Shown: one piece after another, positions 21,178 to 37,107 of the stretch
Layout of the letters: every line of letters begins with the position of its first letter
How positions within the stretch are numbered: position 1 is the stretch's first letter
Assembly (NCBI GenBank): GCA_963839705.1
Contig: CAWIWL010000021.1
Coordinates: 221,072-285,071, forward strand
DNA length: 64,000 bases
Direction of reading: 5' to 3'
Source: an uncultured Acidobacteriota bacterium
Lineage (GTDB): Bacteria > Acidobacteriota > Vicinamibacteria > Vicinamibacterales > 2-12-FULL-66-21
The notes under the pieces: generated by a model
What the model was told of the DNA's origin: nothing
Seen by the model: only the letters and a program-made list of their open reading frames with translations
Databases searched by the model: none
Position numbers and translations under genes: made by a program

Positions 21178-21846
21178 CTACGGCGGCGCGGTTGCCTCCA
21201 CGAATGGTTCCGTTAGTTGTGACAGTGTCGTCCGGCCGTGGCGCCTCGCGAGCCTGAGGAGGCGAAGAAACACCTGTGCGGTCAGGAAGGCGTCGCCGCT
21301 CGCCGTATGGCGATCGTGCGGAATCACGCCGAACATCTCGCAGAGCGCGTCGAGGGTGAACTGGCGGATCGGTGGCCGTCCGGCGAAGGCGCCGTCACGC
21401 TCGAGGTGCAGCGTCAGGTCCATGGTGTCGAGGCTGCGATTCATCGTGCGGAAGCCCCACCCGCGCTCGTAGCCGGCGTCGAGCGTGTCGACGTCGTGAC
21501 CGATGTGGTGTCCGACGATCACGCCGTCACGGAGGTAGTCGAGAAACCGGGCCAGGGCATCCTCTTCGTCCAGCCCGCCGCGGCTCTCGTCGCGCGTAAC
21601 GCCGTGCACCGCCACCGCGCTGGTGTTCTTCGCCACTTTCAGAAGCGCGTTGAAGGAGTCCTCGAGCAGGATCTCGTGAGCGCTGACGACGACGGCGCCG
21701 ATCGTGATGATGCGGTCGGTGCGCGGATTGAGCCCGGTGGTCTCGGAGTCCAGCACGACGAACCGCACCTGATCGATTGGTGTCTCATCGGTCCACGTCG
21801 CATCGAAATGCGTCCGATAGCGGCCGATGAACAACGGCTCCGTCAT
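21178..21846 (-). CDS. DEDD 3'-5' exonuclease (DNA polymerase III epsilon-like)
   Basis: ExoI FVVLDSETTGL, ExoII GHHIGHDVDTLD and ExoIII HTASGDAFLTAQVF. The ATG at 21846 overlaps the upstream gene stop (ATGA). Confidence 0.8.
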   Translation of the reverse strand: MTEPLFIGRYRTHFDATWTDETPIDQVRFVVLDSETTGLNPRTDRIITIGAVVVSAHEILLEDSFNALLKVAKNTSAVAVHGVTRDESRGGLDEEDALARFLDYLRDGVIVGHHIGHDVDTLDAGYERGWGFRTMNRSLDTMDLTLHLERDGAFAGRPPIRQFTLDALCEMFGVIPHDRHTASGDAFLTAQVFLRLLRLARRHGRTTLSQLTEPFVEATAPP

Positions 21847-23753
21847 AGCCTGGCATACCAGGGCGAGTTGCCGGTGAGCTCCAGCAGCCGCAGGATGGAG
21901 CGGAATCCGCTCTTCAGCACGTGCCGGTCGTGGCGGCTGAGCAGCGCTGGCGGCAGCTCGGAGCCCGTGGTCTGTTGATCGATGCCGATGCGCCCCTGCT
22001 GCCACAGCAGGATGCGCAAGGTCTCTGACGCCTCGCGGAAGACTGATTCGTGCTCGGGCAGAAGGGTTCGAGCACCGGCGAGGCGCTCCTCTGTCGACGT
22101 GCCCAGCACTTTCTTTGCAGCGAGGCCGAATACGCGTCCGACATCCACGATTGGCTGCAGAGCGCTCTGTTCCAGGCGAAAGACGGCCGCCTGTTCGCCG
22201 GCTTCGTCGACGACGGCGTCTTCGAAGAACGTCAGCGGCGGCAGGCTCGCCAGGCAATCATTGGCCAGCACCTGGACGACGTCGCGATCAACCGCGCCGG
22301 CCACCGAGGCCTCGATGTCGCGCCACAGCGATTCAGGGCCGTGCACGGCCCGCAGGTCGAACAGGGGGCGAGCCAGGTGCATCTGCGCGCGCACCGGGTC
22401 GCGCAGCCAGTCCTGGTAGCGCGTCTGCCATTCGGCCCGGCTCGACACTTTGCCCGATCCGGGCACGGCGCGGTCGAAGGACGAGTCGAGTCGGGGAAGG
22501 TAGTCGCATTCGGAAAGTGACTGCGACACTCGTTCCCAGGCCCGCACCACGTCAGGGCGCGTGCTCTCGTCCTCCACGATGACTACCAGTTGCGGGGCGT
22601 GCCTGGTCAGCGATTCCCCGCGTCCGGCCGCTCCACAGAAGCACCAGCACGCCGGCGCGGCAGTCTCGTCCGCGAGAGCGATGAGGCGCCGGACAACGTG
22701 TACGTCGATCTGGAACATGAAGCGCGCCAGCCAGCTGACCGAGCTTGCGCTCGTCAGGTAGCGCAGCGCCAGCGCGCGCGCTCGATGATTGAGCTCGCCG
22801 AGCTCGCGGGTGTGTGTCGCGAGACCAATCTCGCGAAAGATCGCGGTGGGCTGATCGCCGAAGACCCGAGCGATGTCTCTCGGCGTCACGAGCGCCTGGA
22901 GCTCGCCGCTCGAGGAGCCGTCAGATGTGAGCGTCAGCGCGTCGGCGTCGGCCTGGCACATCGCCAGGACGGCGTCGGTGACCGACGCGGCTGATCCGAT
23001 CGCGGGCGGAGCGTCACGGACGACTTCGCCGACCGGCTGTCCAGCGTCGCCGGCGCCCCGGGCGACCCATGCGAGCACGGACTTGACGGTCACAACGGCA
23101 TCCACACGATTGGCCGCATCGACGACCGCGAGCGCATCGGACCCGGTCATCAGAAGGGATCGGGCCGCGTCGCGAATGGTCGTCGTCGAACTGCAGCTCT
23201 CGAGCGGTCGCCGGCGGACCACATCGTGGAGGAACATCCTCTGGGGGTCCCGCGCGTCTTTCGCCCATTGGTAGTCCGCGGTCACCGTTTCGTACGCCTC
23301 CACGAACTTGCGCGCGTACGCAGATTTCAGCACCAGATGTTCGAAGTCCGACGCTGGAAAGGTGTAGATCACGACGTCGCTTTCCGATCGCGCTGAGTTC
23401 ATGCAGAACGGCGCGCCGGTGAAGCGCTCGACGCCCAGCATGTCTCCGGCGCCTCGGACGTCCCACAAGGTGGCACGTCCGTCCGCCTCGTCCCAGAGCG
23501 TTACCGTCCCTTGCTGAATCACGGACACGTGTGGCTTGTGCGGCTCGCCTTGCCACACGAGGAAGTCGTTGGCCTCGTGAAACCTGACGCGGCCCCGCGC
23601 AGCAAGCGCGAGGAGGTCACCTTCGTCGACGGCTTGAAAGGGCGGATGTGTCTTGAGGAAATCGGCGACGCGGTAGCTGATGGCGGCTGTGTCCAAAGTG
23701 GGTCCTGACTGATGAAACGTGAAGAATAGCAGGTCTCTACCCTCGACTCGCAT
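21843..23753 (-). CDS. cyclic-nucleotide-binding / CBS-pair / DUF294 nucleotidyltransferase-like protein
   Basis: N-terminal cNMP-binding-like region (GEPHKPHVSVIQQGTV...GAGDMLGVE), a CBS-like middle, an NTase-like GAAGRGESLTRH segment and a DUF294_C-like tail. It is translationally coupled to the exonuclease, a pairing I recall as recurrent. Confidence 0.65.
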   Translation of the reverse strand: MRVEGRDLLFFTFHQSGPTLDTAAISYRVADFLKTHPPFQAVDEGDLLALAARGRVRFHEANDFLVWQGEPHKPHVSVIQQGTVTLWDEADGRATLWDVRGAGDMLGVERFTGAPFCMNSARSESDVVIYTFPASDFEHLVLKSAYARKFVEAYETVTADYQWAKDARDPQRMFLHDVVRRRPLESCSSTTTIRDAARSLLMTGSDALAVVDAANRVDAVVTVKSVLAWVARGAGDAGQPVGEVVRDAPPAIGSAASVTDAVLAMCQADADALTLTSDGSSSGELQALVTPRDIARVFGDQPTAIFREIGLATHTRELGELNHRARALALRYLTSASSVSWLARFMFQIDVHVVRRLIALADETAAPACWCFCGAAGRGESLTRHAPQLVVIVEDESTRPDVVRAWERVSQSLSECDYLPRLDSSFDRAVPGSGKVSSRAEWQTRYQDWLRDPVRAQMHLARPLFDLRAVHGPESLWRDIEASVAGAVDRDVVQVLANDCLASLPPLTFFEDAVVDEAGEQAAVFRLEQSALQPIVDVGRVFGLAAKKVLGTSTEERLAGARTLLPEHESVFREASETLRILLWQQGRIGIDQQTTGSELPPALLSRHDRHVLKSGFRSILRLLELTGNSPWYARL

Positions 23754-24068: not shown

Positions 24069-24289
24069 GTGTATCGTGCGCCTAGGAGGCGAAGGCAGCG
24101 CGATCCCCTGGCTGCCGAACCGGGTGCTCGGATGGGGTCGGAAGAGCGGCGGCATGAGTGTGTAAGCTGCTTCTCTCCCCGCGGCGCCGTGCGCATTTGC
24201 GCCCCTGGAACGCAATTACACTGCACATTTTTGATGCCGGGCTTGGATCCCGGGCTGGCCCGAGACATGCTCTTTCTCTCGGAGTGGTG

Positions 24290-26038
24290 ATGACCGATAC
24301 GACTGTTGCGGGCGCGATCGTGCGGAAGGTGCCCACTGGCATCCCCGGCCTGGACGAGATCACCTTCGGCGGGCTGCCCGCCGGGCGGCCGACACTGGTC
24401 TGTGGAGGCCCGGGGTCGGGCAAGACGCTGCTCGGTATCACGTTTCTCGTCAATGGCGCCCGGGAGTTCGGTGAGGCTGGCGTATTGATGAGCTTTGAGC
24501 AGAACGCGGAGGAACTGGCTCAGGACGTCGGCTCGCTCGGCTACGACTTAGCCAGCCTCGTCGACGATCGGAAGCTCGTCGTCGACTACGTTCACGTCGA
24601 CCGCAGCGAGATCGAGGAAACGGGTGAGTACGACCTCGAGGGGCTGTTTGTTCGCCTCGAACACGCGGTCAACTCAGTCGGTGCCAGACGCGTCGTGCTC
24701 GACACGATCGAATCGCTGTTTGCCGGCCTCGAAAACGAAACGATCCTCCGTGCCGAGCTTCGCCGTCTGTTCCGATGGCTTCGCGATCGCGACCTCACTG
24801 CCGTGATCACCGGCGAAAAAGGCGAAACCACGCTGACCCGCCACGGGCTCGAAGAGTATGTGACCGACGCCGTCATCCAACTCGATCACCGGGTGTCCGA
24901 TCAGATTTCGACGCGCCGTCTCCGGGTCGTCAAATACCGCGGGTCCCATCACGGAACCAACGAGTATCCGTTTCTCATCGACCAGGACGGCGTCAGCGTG
25001 CTTCCCGTCACGTCGCTCACGCTGCAGCACCCCGCCTCGTCCGAGCGCGTCTCGAGCGGCCTCGCGACGCTCGACGCGATGCTTGGCGGCGAGGGCTTCT
25101 ATCGCGGCAGCACCGTGCTCGTCTCCGGAACGGCCGGCACCGGAAAGACCACGCTGGCGGCGCACTTCGTCGACGCCGCCTGCAAGCGCGGGGAACGCAG
25201 TCTCTATTTTCTCTTCGAGGAGTCGCCGCAGCAGATGCTGCGCAACATGCGGTCGTGCGGCATCGATCTGGGGCCCTGCGTCGATGCCGGACTGCTTCAC
25301 TTTCACGCTGACCGTCCTTCGCGCTTCGGACTCGAGACGCACCTGATGGCGATGCACCGCGGCGTGGCGCAGTTCCGCCCCAAGGTCGTCGTCATCGATC
25401 CGATGACCAATCTGCTGTTGGTCGGCACGCAGCTTGACGTGCGCGCGATGTTGACCCGCATGATCGACTTTCTCAAGATGCAGAACATCACGGCCCTCTT
25501 CACCGGTCTGACCCAGGCCGGCAGCGACCTCGAAACGACAGAAACGATGGTGTCGTCGCTCATGGACGCGTGGGTGCTGACGTCGATCGAGGCCGTCGAG
25601 CGCCAGCGGCAACGATGGATCTACGTGCTGAAGGCGCGCGGGATCGCGCACTCGAATGAGACGCGGGAGTTTCGCATCACCGGGGGCGGAATCGACATCC
25701 TTCCCGCCCTCCCCGCGAAACATGCGGGCGGAGGTGACATGAGTGAGGAAATGTTCGACTTGCGCCTCTATGTCGCCGGACAGACGCCGAAGGCAATACG
25801 AGCCTTCGCCAATCTGAGGAAGATCTGCGACGAACATCTCGCCGGCCGCTACCGCATCGAAGTCATCGATCTGCTGGAGGATCCCCAGCTCGGTCGCGGC
25901 GATCAGATTCTTGCCCTGCCCACGCTCGTGCGCAGGCTGCCGCAGCCGATCAAGCGGATCATCGGCGATCTCTCGAATACCGAGCGGGTGCTGGTCGGGT
26001 TGGATCTGCGTCAGCGTCAGAAGGGCCTGCATGACTAA
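24290..26038 (+). CDS. kaiC: KaiC homolog (double RecA/DnaB-like ATPase) whose ORF runs without a stop into a KaiB-like module
   Basis: Walker A GGPGSGKT (CI) and GTAGTGKT (CII). Catalytic boxes [10 protein letters not shown] and [10 protein letters not shown]. Also [13 protein letters not shown] and [26 protein letters not shown] lies where the cyanobacterial Ser/Thr phosphosites sit. The start is set at ATG 24290 (MTDTTVAG...). Confidence 0.85.
25739..26038 (+). CDS. kaiB: KaiB-like module (possible internal cistron, in frame with kaiC)
   Basis: [90 protein letters not shown] is a full-length KaiB pattern. GGAGGTG lies 4 nt upstream of ATG 25739. Confidence 0.6.
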
Positions 26039-26369
26039 GCGATCGCCCACGTCGATTGCGGAAAAACTCGAGGCCGCCGCCCGGCACCCGAGTACGGAGC
26101 GCTACGTGCTTCGGCTGTATGTGACCGGCATGACGCCGCGCTCGACCCGTGCCGTCGAGAACGTGCGTACCATTTGCGAGGAACATCTTCACGGACGATA
26201 CGATCTCGAGGTCATCGACATTTATCAACAGCCAACCCTGGCCAAGGGGGAGCAGATTGTCGCGGCGCCGACGCTCATCAAGAAACTGCCTCTGCCGTTG
26301 CGACGTGTAATCGGCGATCTGTCGAGCACCGAACGGGTTCTTCTGGGGCTGGATCTCAGACGCGCCTAG
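26031..26369 (+). CDS. kaiB: KaiB homolog (second copy)
   Basis: [85 protein letters not shown]. The ATG at 26031 overlaps the preceding ORF end by 8 nt. Confidence 0.85.
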
Positions 26370-26376
26370 GACCCTC

Positions 26377-27982
26377 ATGGACGACCACGCAGCCAACGGC
26401 CCCGTCGACTCAGCCGAGCTCGATGAGGTGCGCGCGCGACTCGCCGAGGCCGAAGAGACCTTGCGGGCGATCCGCGATGGCGAGGTGGATGCGTTGCTGA
26501 TCGCCGACGGCTCGGGCGAACGCGTTTACACGCTCCGCAGTGCGGACGCACCGTATCGCGCGCTAATCGAGCAGATGCAGGACGGAGCCGTCACCCTCAC
26601 CAGCAAAGGGGACATCGTCTACTGCAACCAGCGCTTCGCCGATCTGGTCGGCACGCCGCTGCAGAACGTCATCGGCTCATCGATCGATCAGTTCGTCGAT
26701 GATGCCGACCAGGCGACGCTGAATGCGCTCATCGCCGAGGGCGCGGGCAAGCTGCGCACATGCCTTCGCCACTCGAGCCACCCGGCGCTCGAGGCCCACC
26801 TGTCGGTCAGCCACGTCACCGTGGATGAGGTCGCGTATCGCACGTTGATCGTGACCGACGTCAGCACGCTGACGAAGGTGCAGCGCGAAAGTCAGTCCAA
26901 GGATCAGTTCCTGGCCATGCTCGCACACGAGCTGCGCAATCCCCTGGGGGCGATCGAGGGCGCGGTGCAGGTCCTCGAGCTGGCGACTCTACGCGAGCCG
27001 CGCGCGATTCACGCTCGGGATGTCATTCACCGGCAGGCCGTGCACATGGCCCGGCTCGTCGACGATCTCCTCGACGTGGGACGGGTCATGACCGGCAAGA
27101 TTGTGCTGGAGCGCCAGCCCGTCGACTTCGGCGGAGAGCGTTCGGACCTGCGTTGCCGGAATCACCTCGGGTGACCGGAGCGCCGGCCGCGTCGAGACGA
27201 CGGTGGCACCGGTCTGGGTGAATGCGGATCCAGTGCGCCTCGAGCAGATTGTCACCAATCTCGTCTCCAATGCGCTCAAGTTCTCGCCCGGCGACAAACC
27301 CGTCCGCGTGTCGGTGAGCGCCCGCGGGACCGACGCGGTGCTGCGCGTCGCCGACGAAGGGAGCGGCATCAGCCCCGACTTGCTGCCGCACATCTTCGAC
27401 CTCTTCGTCCAGGGAGACGACACGAGCGACCGCGCCAAGGGTGGGCTCGGCATCGGCTTGACGCTGGTTCGACAGCTCGTGGAGCTCCACGGCGGGACCA
27501 TCGAAGTCTCGAGCGCGAACACCGGCGAGGGCTCGGTCTTCGAGGTGCGGCTGCCCGCTGCGCGGCCACCCGTCAAAGCCGGGGCGGTCGGCATGGGATC
27601 GACCGCGACACGACGGGTACATCGTGTCCTGCTAGTCGATGACCATGCCGACGCGAGGGAAATGTACGCCATGGTCCTGCAGGCTGATGGACACGAGGTC
27701 TTCCAGGCGGAAGACGGCGCCGCGGCAGTCGCCATGTTCCCGAGCCTCAGGCCGGACGTCGCGGTCGTGGACATCGGTCTTCCGCTGATGGACGGCTATG
27801 AGGTCGCGCGCCAGATCCGGTCCGGACCGGGCGGGGAAGACGTGCGGCTGATCGCCCTGACCGGTTACGGCTTCCCCGAGGATCGCGAGCGTTCGCGTGC
27901 GGCGGGCTTCGATCGTCACCTCGTCAAGCCGGCTATGCCCGAGGACCTGCGGCGTGAACTGGATCGGGTCGAGCGCGGCTAG
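26377..27982 (+). pseudogene. PAS - HisKA - HATPase_c - receiver hybrid histidine kinase, split by a frame change near 27130
   Basis: ORF 26377-27174 carries a coiled coil, PAS and the H-box FLAMLAHELRNPL, and stops at TGA 27172. The next frame (27101-27982) continues exactly where expected with AESVRTCVAG...VWVNADPVRLEQIVTNLVSNALKF, DEGSGI, GGLGIGLTLV and a receiver (VLLVDDHADAREM...VDIGLPLMDG...LTGYG...KP). Confidence 0.75.
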
Positions 27983-33378: not shown

Positions 33379-33492
33379 TAGGCGTTTCGCATACCGAAAT
33401 ACGACGCCCTGCCCACATTGTCTTTGAATCTCGCGTAGCGGTGGCGTAGCCTCCCGAGTACGTTCGAAAGCTCGAACCAGAGGAGGAAACTC

Positions 33493-36400
33493 GTGGAGCA
33501 CTGTTTCGCCGTCGCCAAGCGGATGAGCGTCGTGTTCCTGCTATTCCTGGGCTCTGCCGCTGCGGCCGACGCCCAAGGCGAGCTCGGCACCATCACCGGC
33601 ACGCTGAAGGACGCACAGGGTGGCGTCATGCCGGGCGTCACCGCTACCGCCGTCAACCTTGAAACCAACGTCAAGACGACCGCCACCACCAACGAGGCTG
33701 GTGTCTACCTGTTGTCCTCGCTCGTCAACGGCCGTTACCGTCTGACCTGCACGCTGGACGGATTCGCGCCCGTCGCACGTGATCTCGAGGTGCGCGCCGG
33801 CGACCGTCTGCGCGTCGACCTCACGCTCACAGTCGGCGGCATTACGGAAGAGACGAAGGTCATCGCGGAGACGCCGCTGCTCGAAACGGCAACGGCGACG
33901 CGCAGTCAAGTGATAGACCAGGACACGATCGAAGCCATTCCGCTGGCGGGACGCAACCCCTACTCAGCCGCCTACACGATCGCCGGTGTCACGACGCAGT
34001 TCACCCGCCCGAGCATCAGCGCCCGCCCGTTCGATAACGGCGGCATGGATGTCATCTCCATCAACGGCGGCCGCAGCCGTTCGAACGAGCTCCTCCTCGA
34101 CGGCGCCCCGAACACGAGCCGGGAAGGCACCTCACAGGGCAGCCTGGCGTTTGTGCCGTCACCGGACGCCGTGCAGGAAGTTCGCGTCAGCACGAATACT
34201 TACGATGCCCAGTTCGGACGCACTGGCGGCGGCGTCATCGCCGTCAGCATTCGCAGCGGGACGAACACGTTTCGGGGCACGGCGTACTACAACCTCCGCG
34301 ACGCGGCGCTCAACAGCAACCTCTACGAGAACACCGTTCGAGGTATCCCCAAGGAAGACCTATTCCATTACAACCCGGGGTTCACGGTCGGCGGCCCGGT
34401 GCTGCTGCCGAAATACGACGGCCGCAACCGGTCGTTCTTCTTTTACGCGTTCGAGGGGTTGAAGTCCGGCATTCCGGTCTCTGCCGGCGAGCGGGCGCCG
34501 ACCGACCTCGAGCGCGCCGGCAACTTCTCGCAATCGGGGATGACGATTTACGACCCGTTCAACACGGTCAACGGGGTGCCGCAGCCGTTTCCCGGCAACA
34601 TCATCCCCGCGAACCGCATCGATCCTGTGGCGGCCAACCTGATGCAGTACATGGTGTCGCCCAACTCCGATCCCGATGCCTCGGGGAACAACTTTTTCCC
34701 GCGCGCCAATTCGCGGTTCGACACCTACACCTCGGGCATCATTCGAGTGGATCACAACTTCACCGACAACCACCGCTTCTTCGCCCGCTATGGGCACAAC
34801 GGACGGCGGGAGACCCGCGCGAAAGCCGAACGCGAGGAAGTGGCGCTGACTGCCGGGTACCATCACCGGTGGAACAGCGTCTTGAGCGTGGACCTCAGCT
34901 CAACGCTCAGTCCGAGCCTGCTCTCGAGCCTGCGCGCCGGTTGGACGCGCCACCGGCGGCTGGACATCAGCGGCGCCGAGGACATGGGTGGCTTCGATCC
35001 CACCATCATGGGATTCCAGGGGGCCTTCGTCTCCCAGGTGCCAGCCCGGTTCTATCCGATTCGGCTCAACGACTACACGGCGGCGGCGATCGGCCAGGGC
35101 GGCGGGCAGGACGGCCCGAGCGATGACTTCTACCTCCAGGAAACCCTGACGAAGATCATGGGCCGTCACCAACTGAAGTTCGGCGGCGAGTTCCGCTACG
35201 GCGTGAGCGTAGTCGAAAACCCGCTCGCCGGCGGCAGCTTTGCCGACCTCCGGTTCTCGCGCAATTTCACGTCGCTTCGGCCCAGCGTCAATACCCTCAC
35301 GGCCGCGGACGGGGGGAACGCTTTTGCCTCATATCTGCTGGGCTACATGGCCTCAAGCTCCGTCACGCTCAGCCCGAACTTCGACTGGCGGACCGCCTAT
35401 GGCGGCGCATTCGTGCAGGACGATTGGCGTCTCACGAGCCGGCTGACCCTCAACCTCGGGCTGCGGTGGGACTACGAGTCCCCCATCACCGAGCAGGGCA
35501 ACCAGGTCAACGGGGGCTTCGATCCGAACGCGTTGGCGCTCGTCTGCCCGGCCTGCCCGGCGTCCGGCCTGCCGCAGAACCTGAATGGTGGGCTGACGTT
35601 CGCTGACGGCGCCTTCTATTCGCGCGACGGGAACAATGTCGGGCCCCGTGCTGGCTTGACGTACTCGATCACCCCGAAGACGATCCTGCGCGGCGGCTAC
35701 GGACTCACGTACCTCGACTCGTCCACGGACCGTGGGACCTCCACGGGCTTCACACGTTCGACACCCTACGTGGCATCGCTCGACAGCAATCGCACACCCG
35801 CGAATCGGCTGTCGAATCCGTATCCGAACGGCATGCTGCAGCCGGCCGGCGCCTCGCAGGGGACGGCGACGGCACTCGGCACCGGCATCAGCTACGACAT
35901 CCACGATCGGCGGATCCCTCAGTTCCACCAATGGTCGGTCGGCGTGCAGCAGGAATTGTTCTGGCGCAGCGTGCTCGAGGTCGCCTATGTCGGCAGCGCG
36001 ACACGCATGATCGGCGTGAACCGCCCGATCAACAACCTGTCGGCGGATCAGATCGCGCTTGGCGACGCGTACCTCGACGCGCTCGTCCCGAATCCCTTTA
36101 TCGGCCTGGTGCCCGATGGGGGCGCCCGCAACACGGCGGCAACGATTCAACGGCGGGAGCTCCTCCGTCCATACCCGCAGTTTGTGGGCATCACCGAGCG
36201 TCTCGTGCCCATCGGCACGCTCGACTATCAGGCGATCCAGCTGACGTGGGACAAGCGCATGACCAACGGGATCCAGTTTCAGGTCAACTACACGGGCTCG
36301 CGCAATGTCGAGGCGGTCTCGGTGCTCAATCAAGGCGAGGGCCTCTACCGAGAAGTCTCCAACACGCATCGGCCGCACTTCGTGCGGTTCACAGGTGGCT

Positions 36401-36915
36401 GGACGTTGCCCGAGTTCGAGACGCATGGCAAGGCCATGCGGTGGGTGCTCGGTGGATGGCAAATCAATGCGAGCACCTTCCTGCGGTCTGGGGTGACGGT
36501 CGGCATGCCCGACAACGTCGATCTCATCGGCGACCCACGGCTCGAGAATCCCACGAAAGCCCGATGGTTCAACACCTGCACGCTCACGACCGCAGGCCTG
36601 CGCCAGGGGTGTGCGAGCGACAGCGAGCAGCCGGCGTTCAAGATCCGCCCGAACAATGCACTCGATACCACCGGGGCGCGACTCGAGGGTGTGTATTCTA
36701 GCGATCCGTTCATTCTCGACCTGTCGTTCTTCAAGACGTTCCGCTTCTCGCAGCGGATGAGTTTCCAGACCCGCGTGGAGATGTTCAACATTACCAATGC
36801 CGTGCAGTGGCCAGGTCCGAACACGACCGTAACCTCGACCGCATTCGGCACCGTCGCCGAGACGCAGTCAAACGATCCGCGCTTCGTGCAGATCGCGTTC
36901 CGGTTCCTCTGGTAA
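33493..36915 (+). CDS. TonB-dependent receptor with N-terminal carboxypeptidase-regulatory-like domain
   Basis: Signal peptide, GTITGTLKDAQGGVMPGVTATAVNLETNV...GVYLLSSLVNGRYRL (CarboxypepD_reg), a plug region, and the terminal aromatic motif FVQIAFRFLW. GTG start 5 nt after AGGAGGA. Confidence 0.85.
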   Translation: MEHCFAVAKRMSVVFLLFLGSAAAADAQGELGTITGTLKDAQGGVMPGVTATAVNLETNVKTTATTNEAGVYLLSSLVNGRYRLTCTLDGFAPVARDLEVRAGDRLRVDLTLTVGGITEETKVIAETPLLETATATRSQVIDQDTIEAIPLAGRNPYSAAYTIAGVTTQFTRPSISARPFDNGGMDVISINGGRSRSNELLLDGAPNTSREGTSQGSLAFVPSPDAVQEVRVSTNTYDAQFGRTGGGVIAVSIRSGTNTFRGTAYYNLRDAALNSNLYENTVRGIPKEDLFHYNPGFTVGGPVLLPKYDGRNRSFFFYAFEGLKSGIPVSAGERAPTDLERAGNFSQSGMTIYDPFNTVNGVPQPFPGNIIPANRIDPVAANLMQYMVSPNSDPDASGNNFFPRANSRFDTYTSGIIRVDHNFTDNHRFFARYGHNGRRETRAKAEREEVALTAGYHHRWNSVLSVDLSSTLSPSLLSSLRAGWTRHRRLDISGAEDMGGFDPTIMGFQGAFVSQVPARFYPIRLNDYTAAAIGQGGGQDGPSDDFYLQETLTKIMGRHQLKFGGEFRYGVSVVENPLAGGSFADLRFSRNFTSLRPSVNTLTAADGGNAFASYLLGYMASSSVTLSPNFDWRTAYGGAFVQDDWRLTSRLTLNLGLRWDYESPITEQGNQVNGGFDPNALALVCPACPASGLPQNLNGGLTFADGAFYSRDGNNVGPRAGLTYSITPKTILRGGYGLTYLDSSTDRGTSTGFTRSTPYVASLDSNRTPANRLSNPYPNGMLQPAGASQGTATALGTGISYDIHDRRIPQFHQWSVGVQQELFWRSVLEVAYVGSATRMIGVNRPINNLSADQIALGDAYLDALVPNPFIGLVPDGGARNTAATIQRRELLRPYPQFVGITERLVPIGTLDYQAIQLTWDKRMTNGIQFQVNYTGSRNVEAVSVLNQGEGLYREVSNTHRPHFVRFTGGWTLPEFETHGKAMRWVLGGWQINASTFLRSGVTVGMPDNVDLIGDPRLENPTKARWFNTCTLTTAGLRQGCASDSEQPAFKIRPNNALDTTGARLEGVYSSDPFILDLSFFKTFRFSQRMSFQTRVEMFNITNAVQWPGPNTTVTSTAFGTVAETQSNDPRFVQIAFRFLW

Positions 36916-36934
36916 GGGTTGCAAGCCCTCCGGT

Positions 36935-36973
36935 GGTCGGGGTCAGGTCCATCACTGTGATCTGATCCCGACC
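36935..36973 (+). terminator. GC-rich hairpin downstream of the TonB-dependent receptor gene
   Basis: GGTCGGGGTCAG (36935-36946) pairs with CTGATCCCGACC (36962-36973) with one mismatch. There is no clear U-tract. Confidence 0.35.
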
Positions 36974-37107
36974 GTGCGGCTCAGCGTCGGCCTTCAGTAG
37001 CTGTTGGATTACTCGCCGACTCCGGCGCTAGACAACCGGTGATCACGGTGCAACAAAAACCGTGTAATCATCACGTGAGCATCTCGCGTCAAAACTGGTG
37101 AGCCGAC

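Follow-up and report, generated by a model that had tools for sequence, protein, structure and literature searches.

The window, by which we mean the whole stretch of 64,000 nucleotides that was analysed, carries a kaiC gene that runs into the following kaiB without a stop codon, and the single extra A that creates this arrangement is probably an indel artefact of a long-read consensus and not a natural gene fusion. One open frame extends on the forward strand from the ATG at 24290 to the TAA at 26036-26038 and encodes 582 aa, as found both in the ORF list and by a separate translation, so the uninterrupted KaiC-KaiB frame described in the initial annotation is indeed present. It owes its existence to a single additional base at 25718-25720, where the window reads AAA and not AA. 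The locus otherwise represents an ordinary KaiA-less kaiC-kaiB1-kaiB2-histidine kinase operon of a soil acidobacterium (Vicinamibacteria-like), in which kaiC normally ends in a TGA overlapping the kaiB1 ATG, an arrangement expected to lead to translational coupling. The extra A would then be a probable consensus indel error of a Nanopore/Flye-type metagenome assembly. Of the three readings offered in the initial annotation, a fusion, dual expression or a one-base artefact, the last is favoured by the fact that a single base separates the window junction from that of five contigs of the same species. The features of the operon are as follows.

24290..25738, forward strand: kaiC coding sequence as read, matching KaiC profiles, with the stop before kaiB absent
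25718..25720, forward strand: A-run AAA, which is AA in contigs L006-L010; the extra base yields the in-frame fusion
25730..25734, forward strand: GGAGG, ribosome-binding site of kaiB1, four bases 5' of its ATG and kept in all related contigs
25735..25742, forward strand: TGACATGA, the stop/start region, with two TGAs around the kaiB1 ATG at 25739
25739..26038, forward strand: kaiB1, 99 aa, PF07689; the protein is a separately called gene on five short-read contigs
26031..26369, forward strand: kaiB2, 112 aa, PF07689; its start overlaps the kaiB1 stop (ATGACTAA)
26377..27982, forward strand: PAS-HisKA-HATPase_c-REC hybrid histidine kinase, split in the window by an extra G at 27133-27134

The kaiC-kaiB1 junction in the window and in related contigs

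The junction sequence of the window is GCGAAACATG, with the A-run at 25718-25720. Two of the three possible frames close here, at the TGA of 25735-25737, which is the kaiC stop in L001-type relatives, and at the TGA of 25740-25742, which is the kaiC stop in L006-, L096- and L002-type relatives, where it forms the ATGA overlap. Neither TGA lies in the kaiC frame of the window, and read-through at the junction is possible solely in the frame that is actually present. Deleting one A closes kaiC at the TGA of 25740-25742 and gives a KaiC of 483 aa; the Shine-Dalgarno sequence and ATG of kaiB1 are unbroken in the window, and it is only once one A is removed that kaiC and kaiB overlap there. It had been proposed that the internal ATG at 25739, being preceded by a Shine-Dalgarno sequence, could allow free KaiB to be made besides the fused form. 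The signal is present, with GGAGG at 25730-25734 located four bases upstream, but it is the ordinary, conserved start signal of kaiB, and dual expression finds no comparative support.

Thirteen related contigs were compared with the window, consisting of L006-L010 (four Logan assemblies of ERR99635xx runs and one SPAdes NODE contig, all short-read) and eight more distant ones (L001, L002-L004, L093, L094, L095 and L096), of which L095 is the same contig as L001, while L093, L094 and L096 were reached via a neighbouring cupin gene. L006-L010 are 97.4-97.8% identical to the window in nucleotide sequence, and no contig of the same strain (>99% identity) was found, the closest ones reaching 97.4-98.3%. 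Over up to approximately 2.9-3 kb, these five differ from the window by two indels only, an A at 25718 and a G at 27133, which are additional in the window (GCGAA[A]CATG and GGC[G]GAG, respectively). Their junction reads GCGAACATG, and their kaiC ends in ...PALPANMRAEVT before a TGA that overlaps the kaiB ATG (ATGA), so that the kaiB1 start overlaps the upstream kaiC stop by four bases. With AA, the kaiC tail reads ...ILPALPANMRAEVT and closes at the TGA of this ATGA. According to an exact look-up, the identical 99-aa KaiB1 occurs on five independent short-read contigs, each time as a separate gene. A stop before kaiB is present in all eight more distant contigs as well, and the extra A is carried by none of the 13. 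The ATGA overlap is found in L002-L004, L006-L010 and L096, and TGA-C-ATG in L001 and L093. The anchor-to-anchor span across the junction amounts to 97 nt in the L001 type and 98 nt in the L006, L096 and L002 types, and is 99 nt in the window alone. When one base is removed at each site, the gene lengths become those of the relatives, with a KaiC of 483 aa (as in L096 and L002) and a kinase of 534 aa (as in L001, L093 and L094).

These comparisons bear on two points of the initial annotation. It had anticipated that orthologs might show separate kaiC and kaiB genes with an ATGA overlap, which is what the five same-species contigs display. It had also suggested that deletion of one C from a C-run would restore the stop; a 483-aa product was confirmed, but the C-run at 25711-25714 is not the differing site and was ruled out as the place of the error, because CCCC is the same in every relative. 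The real difference lies in the A-run at 25718-25720, and the true tail is ...PALPANMRAEVT followed by the stop. A 2-nt insertion of AT, read from the alignment with L001 and L002, was superseded, since the closer L006-L010 share the CAT and lack just one A.

The proteins closest to the 582-aa query are KaiC proteins of 476-501 aa, with 95%, 91% and 87% identity, none of which has a KaiB domain. The loci of these closest relatives are syntenic, with kaiC, a kaiB of 99 aa, a kaiB of 112 aa and one PAS-HisKA-HATPase-REC kinase of 534-544 aa. In exact look-ups, neither the 582-aa product nor the neighbouring glyoxalase gave a record, and a pattern scan of JGI metagenome contigs matched neither version of the junction.

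Besides, the last codons of kaiC (window 25715-25742; L001-L010, L093 and L096) contain real 1-nt indels among close lineages. The resulting KaiC tails, AKRGRR, ANMRAEVT, ATARAEVP and AKRGRRLP, are unrelated to one another, and each closes at one of the two TGAs near the kaiB ATG. The KaiC tail seems to be free of constraint apart from having to stop.

The Kai proteins and their closest known clock systems

The KaiC part occupies residues 10-472 (NF006799, 661 bits against a cutoff of 408; PF06745 twice, 350 bits; Pfam and NCBIfam), and the KaiB domain lies at residues 492-572 of the 582-aa frame. Both KaiB1 and KaiB2 match PF07689 (85.8 and 91.1 bits, respectively, against a cutoff of 27) and stay below the equivalog cutoffs of NF006798 (98 and 103 against 110) and TIGR02654 (91 and 98 against 145). 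These profile scores place them in the KaiB family but not among the cyanobacterial-type equivalogs.

Among solved structures, the best match to KaiC (residues 11-473, E=1e-172) is its Rhodobacter sphaeroides homologue (8DB3/8DBA). The KaiBC system of R. sphaeroides, for which the structures PDB 8DB3, 8DBA, 8FWI and 8FWJ are available, is an hourglass timer, in which KaiB on the post-hydrolysis CI ring leads to dephosphorylation (PMC10076222). The window resembles it in having a two-domain KaiC with a Walker A P-loop in both halves (GGPGSGKT in CI and GTAGTGKT in CII, from the translation and the 8DB3 alignment) and KaiB without KaiA. As well, VSSLMD in CII aligns with GLSSLMD of R. sphaeroides KaiC (S413/S414), placing a serine pair at the positions mutated there as S413E/S414E, and the catalytic glutamate pair in CII is EE (LFEESP). 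Differences were also observed. The window KaiC lacks the C-terminal coiled-coil of ~100 residues that forms the dodecamer (483 aa after correction against 568 aa), and the window genes are arranged as kaiC-kaiB-kaiB-kinase with two kaiB paralogues. Moreover, a glutamine replaces the second catalytic glutamate in CI, so that the window has E70-Q71 (24497-24502, FEQ) where R. sphaeroides has E62-E63 (FEE), a Glu-Glu pair with a catalytic role in R. sphaeroides KaiC (PMC10076222). EQ is found in all contigs of the species complex and EE in 74 other species loci; on this distribution, the CI EQ is a clade trait, not a sequence error. It concerns activity, not homology: hydrolysis in CI, which gates the binding of KaiB, may be slowed or lost. 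By homology, the KaiC of the window would autophosphorylate, and its KaiB would bind the post-hydrolysis CI ring and thereby promote dephosphorylation, while the downstream hybrid kinase is a likely output or input component.

Compared with the KaiABC system of Synechococcus elongatus (PDB 1TF7, 2GBL and 5N8Y), KaiC and KaiB of the window are homologous (E ~1e-87 and ~1e-24, respectively). However, the window KaiC remains under the cyanobacterial equivalog cutoff (TIGR02655, 315 against 546), and the gene order is reversed relative to cyanobacteria, with kaiC before kaiB. No kaiA was seen in the annotated neighbourhood of kaiC. The order of kaiC followed by kaiB was also observed in 79 species loci, which span Acidobacteriota, Proteobacteria, Bacteroidota, Planctomycetota and Methanoperedens, and most of them possess a second, tandem kaiB. 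KaiC proteins in these loci comprise a short-tail class, as in the window, and a class with a C-terminal extension of ~100 residues.

Some further features were noticed around the operon. At 24225-24255, 5' of kaiC and in its probable promoter or leader region, there is a GC-rich short repeat (TTGATGCCGGGC-like), whose copy number differs from that of the relatives; relative to the window, L001 has 24 additional bases (2 + 22) and L094 has 12. A segment of ~3.6 kb at 33380-37012 contains an ORF of 1140 aa (33493..36915), whose product, by eye, resembles a secreted outer-membrane receptor-type protein. This segment is missing in L093 and L094, where the DUF1501 gene is directly followed by the cytochrome c gene, and L095 has the same order by its called genes; the segment was apparently gained or lost in a strain-specific manner. 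The cNMP-binding/DUF294 gene is unbroken in the window (21843-23753, 636 aa), and its counterpart in L001 (3528-5383) is split into 270 and 348 aa; the single-base differences responsible correspond to window positions 22935 and 23021-23025, the frameshift being on the L001 side.

Sequencing error and mutation as possible origins of the extra bases

The kinase gene of the window consists of two overlapping ORFs, 26377..27174 (PAS and HisKA) and 27101..27982 (HATPase_c and receiver), which, judged from the sequence, look like one kinase interrupted by a frameshift. The extra G at 27133 sits 1.4 kb downstream of the extra A. None of the eight related contigs spanning this position has it; their kinase is unbroken, with 534-544 aa, and removal of the G from the window gives a single kinase ORF of 534 aa. 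Most likely, this G would be an error of the same kind as the A.

Direct observation covers the base difference, the fact that no relative shares it, the gene lengths regained on correction and the many frameshifts of the sister long-read contigs, whereas we infer that the window derives from a long-read assembly and that its extra bases are errors rather than mutations. Among the relatives, all frameshifts in the kai operon lie on Flye-style 'contig_N' records, and the nine short-read contigs have none. In L093, kaiC is split into 331 and 110 aa and several neighbouring genes are split too, and L094 has a kaiC of 456 aa together with ~20 more single-base indels, by which genes nearby are split. 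The exact KaiB2 of the window is recorded on a contig in the 0.2-1 Mb length class, a size typical of soil assemblies made from long reads. Microflora Danica MAGs of Acidobacteriota/Vicinamibacteria are the nearest named genomes; they were built with Flye from Nanopore data alone and polished once with Medaka to lower the number of indel errors (PMC12313526). The ERZ accessions presumably belong to this Nanopore study, as contig naming and MAG titles indicate. The window is similar to the indel-derived fusions and splits of Nanopore-only assemblies in that it shows single-base insertions on one contig that are absent from same-species short-read contigs. It differs from them in that long homopolymers are absent from both sites (AA to AAA and G to GG) and in that it is cleaner than the sister contigs.

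It is possible, though unlikely, that the extra A is instead a real, recent and strain-specific insertion, and that the kinase frameshift might be real too, with decay of the operon just begun. Such an insertion would fall in a place where change is tolerated, given that the KaiC tail after ILPAL accepts natural 1-nt indels; because tail lengths vary naturally between the 97- and 98-nt classes, a real 99-nt variant is conceivable. The change is nevertheless found in none of the 13 related contigs. The window is a distinct strain, in which private mutations are to be expected, and the operon indeed carries 27 private substitutions, most of them synonymous. The window is also otherwise without obvious split genes. 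Using Pfam, none was evident among five other overlapping same-strand ORF pairs (ThuA/DHquinase II, BlaI/BlaR1, cytochrome c/signal-peptide protein, PIN/DinB and ABC/HlyD), which are complete, bear different domains each and are thus separate genes. With the rest of the window clean, both frame-breaking indels share a single operon of 3.7 kb. This clustering is slightly surprising for two random errors and would fit a loss of selection on the operon. Relaxed selection, however, is not visible on the window branch. The 27 private substitutions comprise 18 synonymous and 9 non-synonymous ones, with 20 of the 27 at codon position 3, which indicates purifying selection along the window lineage and argues against a decaying operon, so that decay under relaxed selection is unsupported. 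Any real mutation would have to be very recent, because the kinase frame past the shift is still open as far as the native stop, and frameshifts in the operon are otherwise confined to long-read contigs. A further argument against a real insertion comes from the structure of the complex, since KaiB docks on the CI ring (PMC10076222), whereas the fusion ties KaiB to the C-terminus of CII by ~15-20 residues. Being so far from the CI dock, a tethered KaiB would presumably be unable to reach the site on the same hexamer, and same-hexamer binding would be unlikely even if the fusion were real.

The window junction can be described as a union of haplotypes, combining AAA of the L001 type with CAT of the L006 type, which could stem from a mixed-strain consensus and equally from a real intermediate. 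An origin as a strain-collapsed consensus is possible for the junction and leaves the kinase indel unexplained.

KaiC-KaiB chimeras in other genomes and their meaning

In-frame junctions between kaiC and kaiB were also sought beyond the close relatives. In 79 species-representative genomes (L013-L092) in which kaiB immediately follows kaiC, no in-frame junction without a stop was found; where kaiC and kaiB share a frame, a stop codon lies in between. The fusion reading considered in the initial annotation is thus not borne out, as neither the 13 related contigs nor the 79 species genomes contain an in-frame junction. A junction-centred query run against 1.84 billion representative proteins, complemented by a second word-index search, returned singleton fragments only. 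P0033 and P0081, which were hits of the search with the 582-aa protein, come from Flye-style contigs of the same ENA accession series as L001, and at the P0081 locus the kinase is split three ways. P0121, P0129, P0144, P0148, P0152 and P0369 are visibly garbled by multiple frameshifts, with the true frame lost and regained along the sequence. In the closely related P0274 and P0275, the KaiC tails do not share a frame, which means that one or both must be shifted; similar singleton fragments are P0273, P0288 and P0351. For the most part, the KaiC-KaiB 'fusions' of the databases look like indel artefacts. A non-exhaustive literature search found no described natural KaiC-KaiB fusion, and the statement that none had been described holds in so far as nothing contrary was met and the database cases are singletons.

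An evolved and selected KaiC-KaiB architecture of the lineage is accordingly very improbable. Two full-length two-domain proteins are on record, P0033 (590 aa) and P0081 (686 aa), together with several junction-spanning fragments, and they might be taken to speak for it. Both are, however, singletons on Flye-style contigs, each fused cluster is confined to a single member and a single contig, and the junction is not kept even within the species, while none of the 79 species loci is fused. On the sequences compared, a conserved fusion in the lineage is excluded. Programmed recoding, in which ribosomal frameshifting or transcriptional slippage at the A-run would give both separate and fused products, is scarcely credible. 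Apart from the short A-run close to the junction, nothing was found in its favour, and this run has just three bases. The relatives show AA and an ordinary stop, neither a conserved slippery heptamer nor a downstream structure was seen, and a second, unrelated one-base insertion is present in the same window.

Should the extra A be real, which we consider doubtful, it would represent a very recent natural KaiC-KaiB1 fusion that keeps an internal start for free KaiB1 and a free KaiB2, and function would then be left to the free KaiB1 from the internal start and to KaiB2. It would constitute a natural experiment, in which the negative regulator of the clock is attached at the wrong end of KaiC, and this in a clade that already has EQ as its CI catalytic pair. 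For clock biology, a fusion that proved genuine and under selection would be a novelty, since the target of KaiB is the CI ring rather than the KaiC C-terminus.

With the long-read artefact as the preferred explanation, the locus is instructive for the Kai family in another way. Because the stop of kaiC overlaps or adjoins the start of kaiB and the third frame is free of stops nearby, any single indel in the last few codons of kaiC can give a clean-looking 'fusion'. Long-read contigs such as L093, L094, L011 and L012 (ENA ERZ250395xx, 'contig_N') contain many single-base indels that split or fuse genes, which accounts for the singleton KaiC-KaiB and KaiB-KaiB chimeras in the protein catalogue. 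The practical value of the finding is thus cautionary: catalogues built from long reads only hold many such singleton chimeras, and surveys of Kai domain architectures should filter them.
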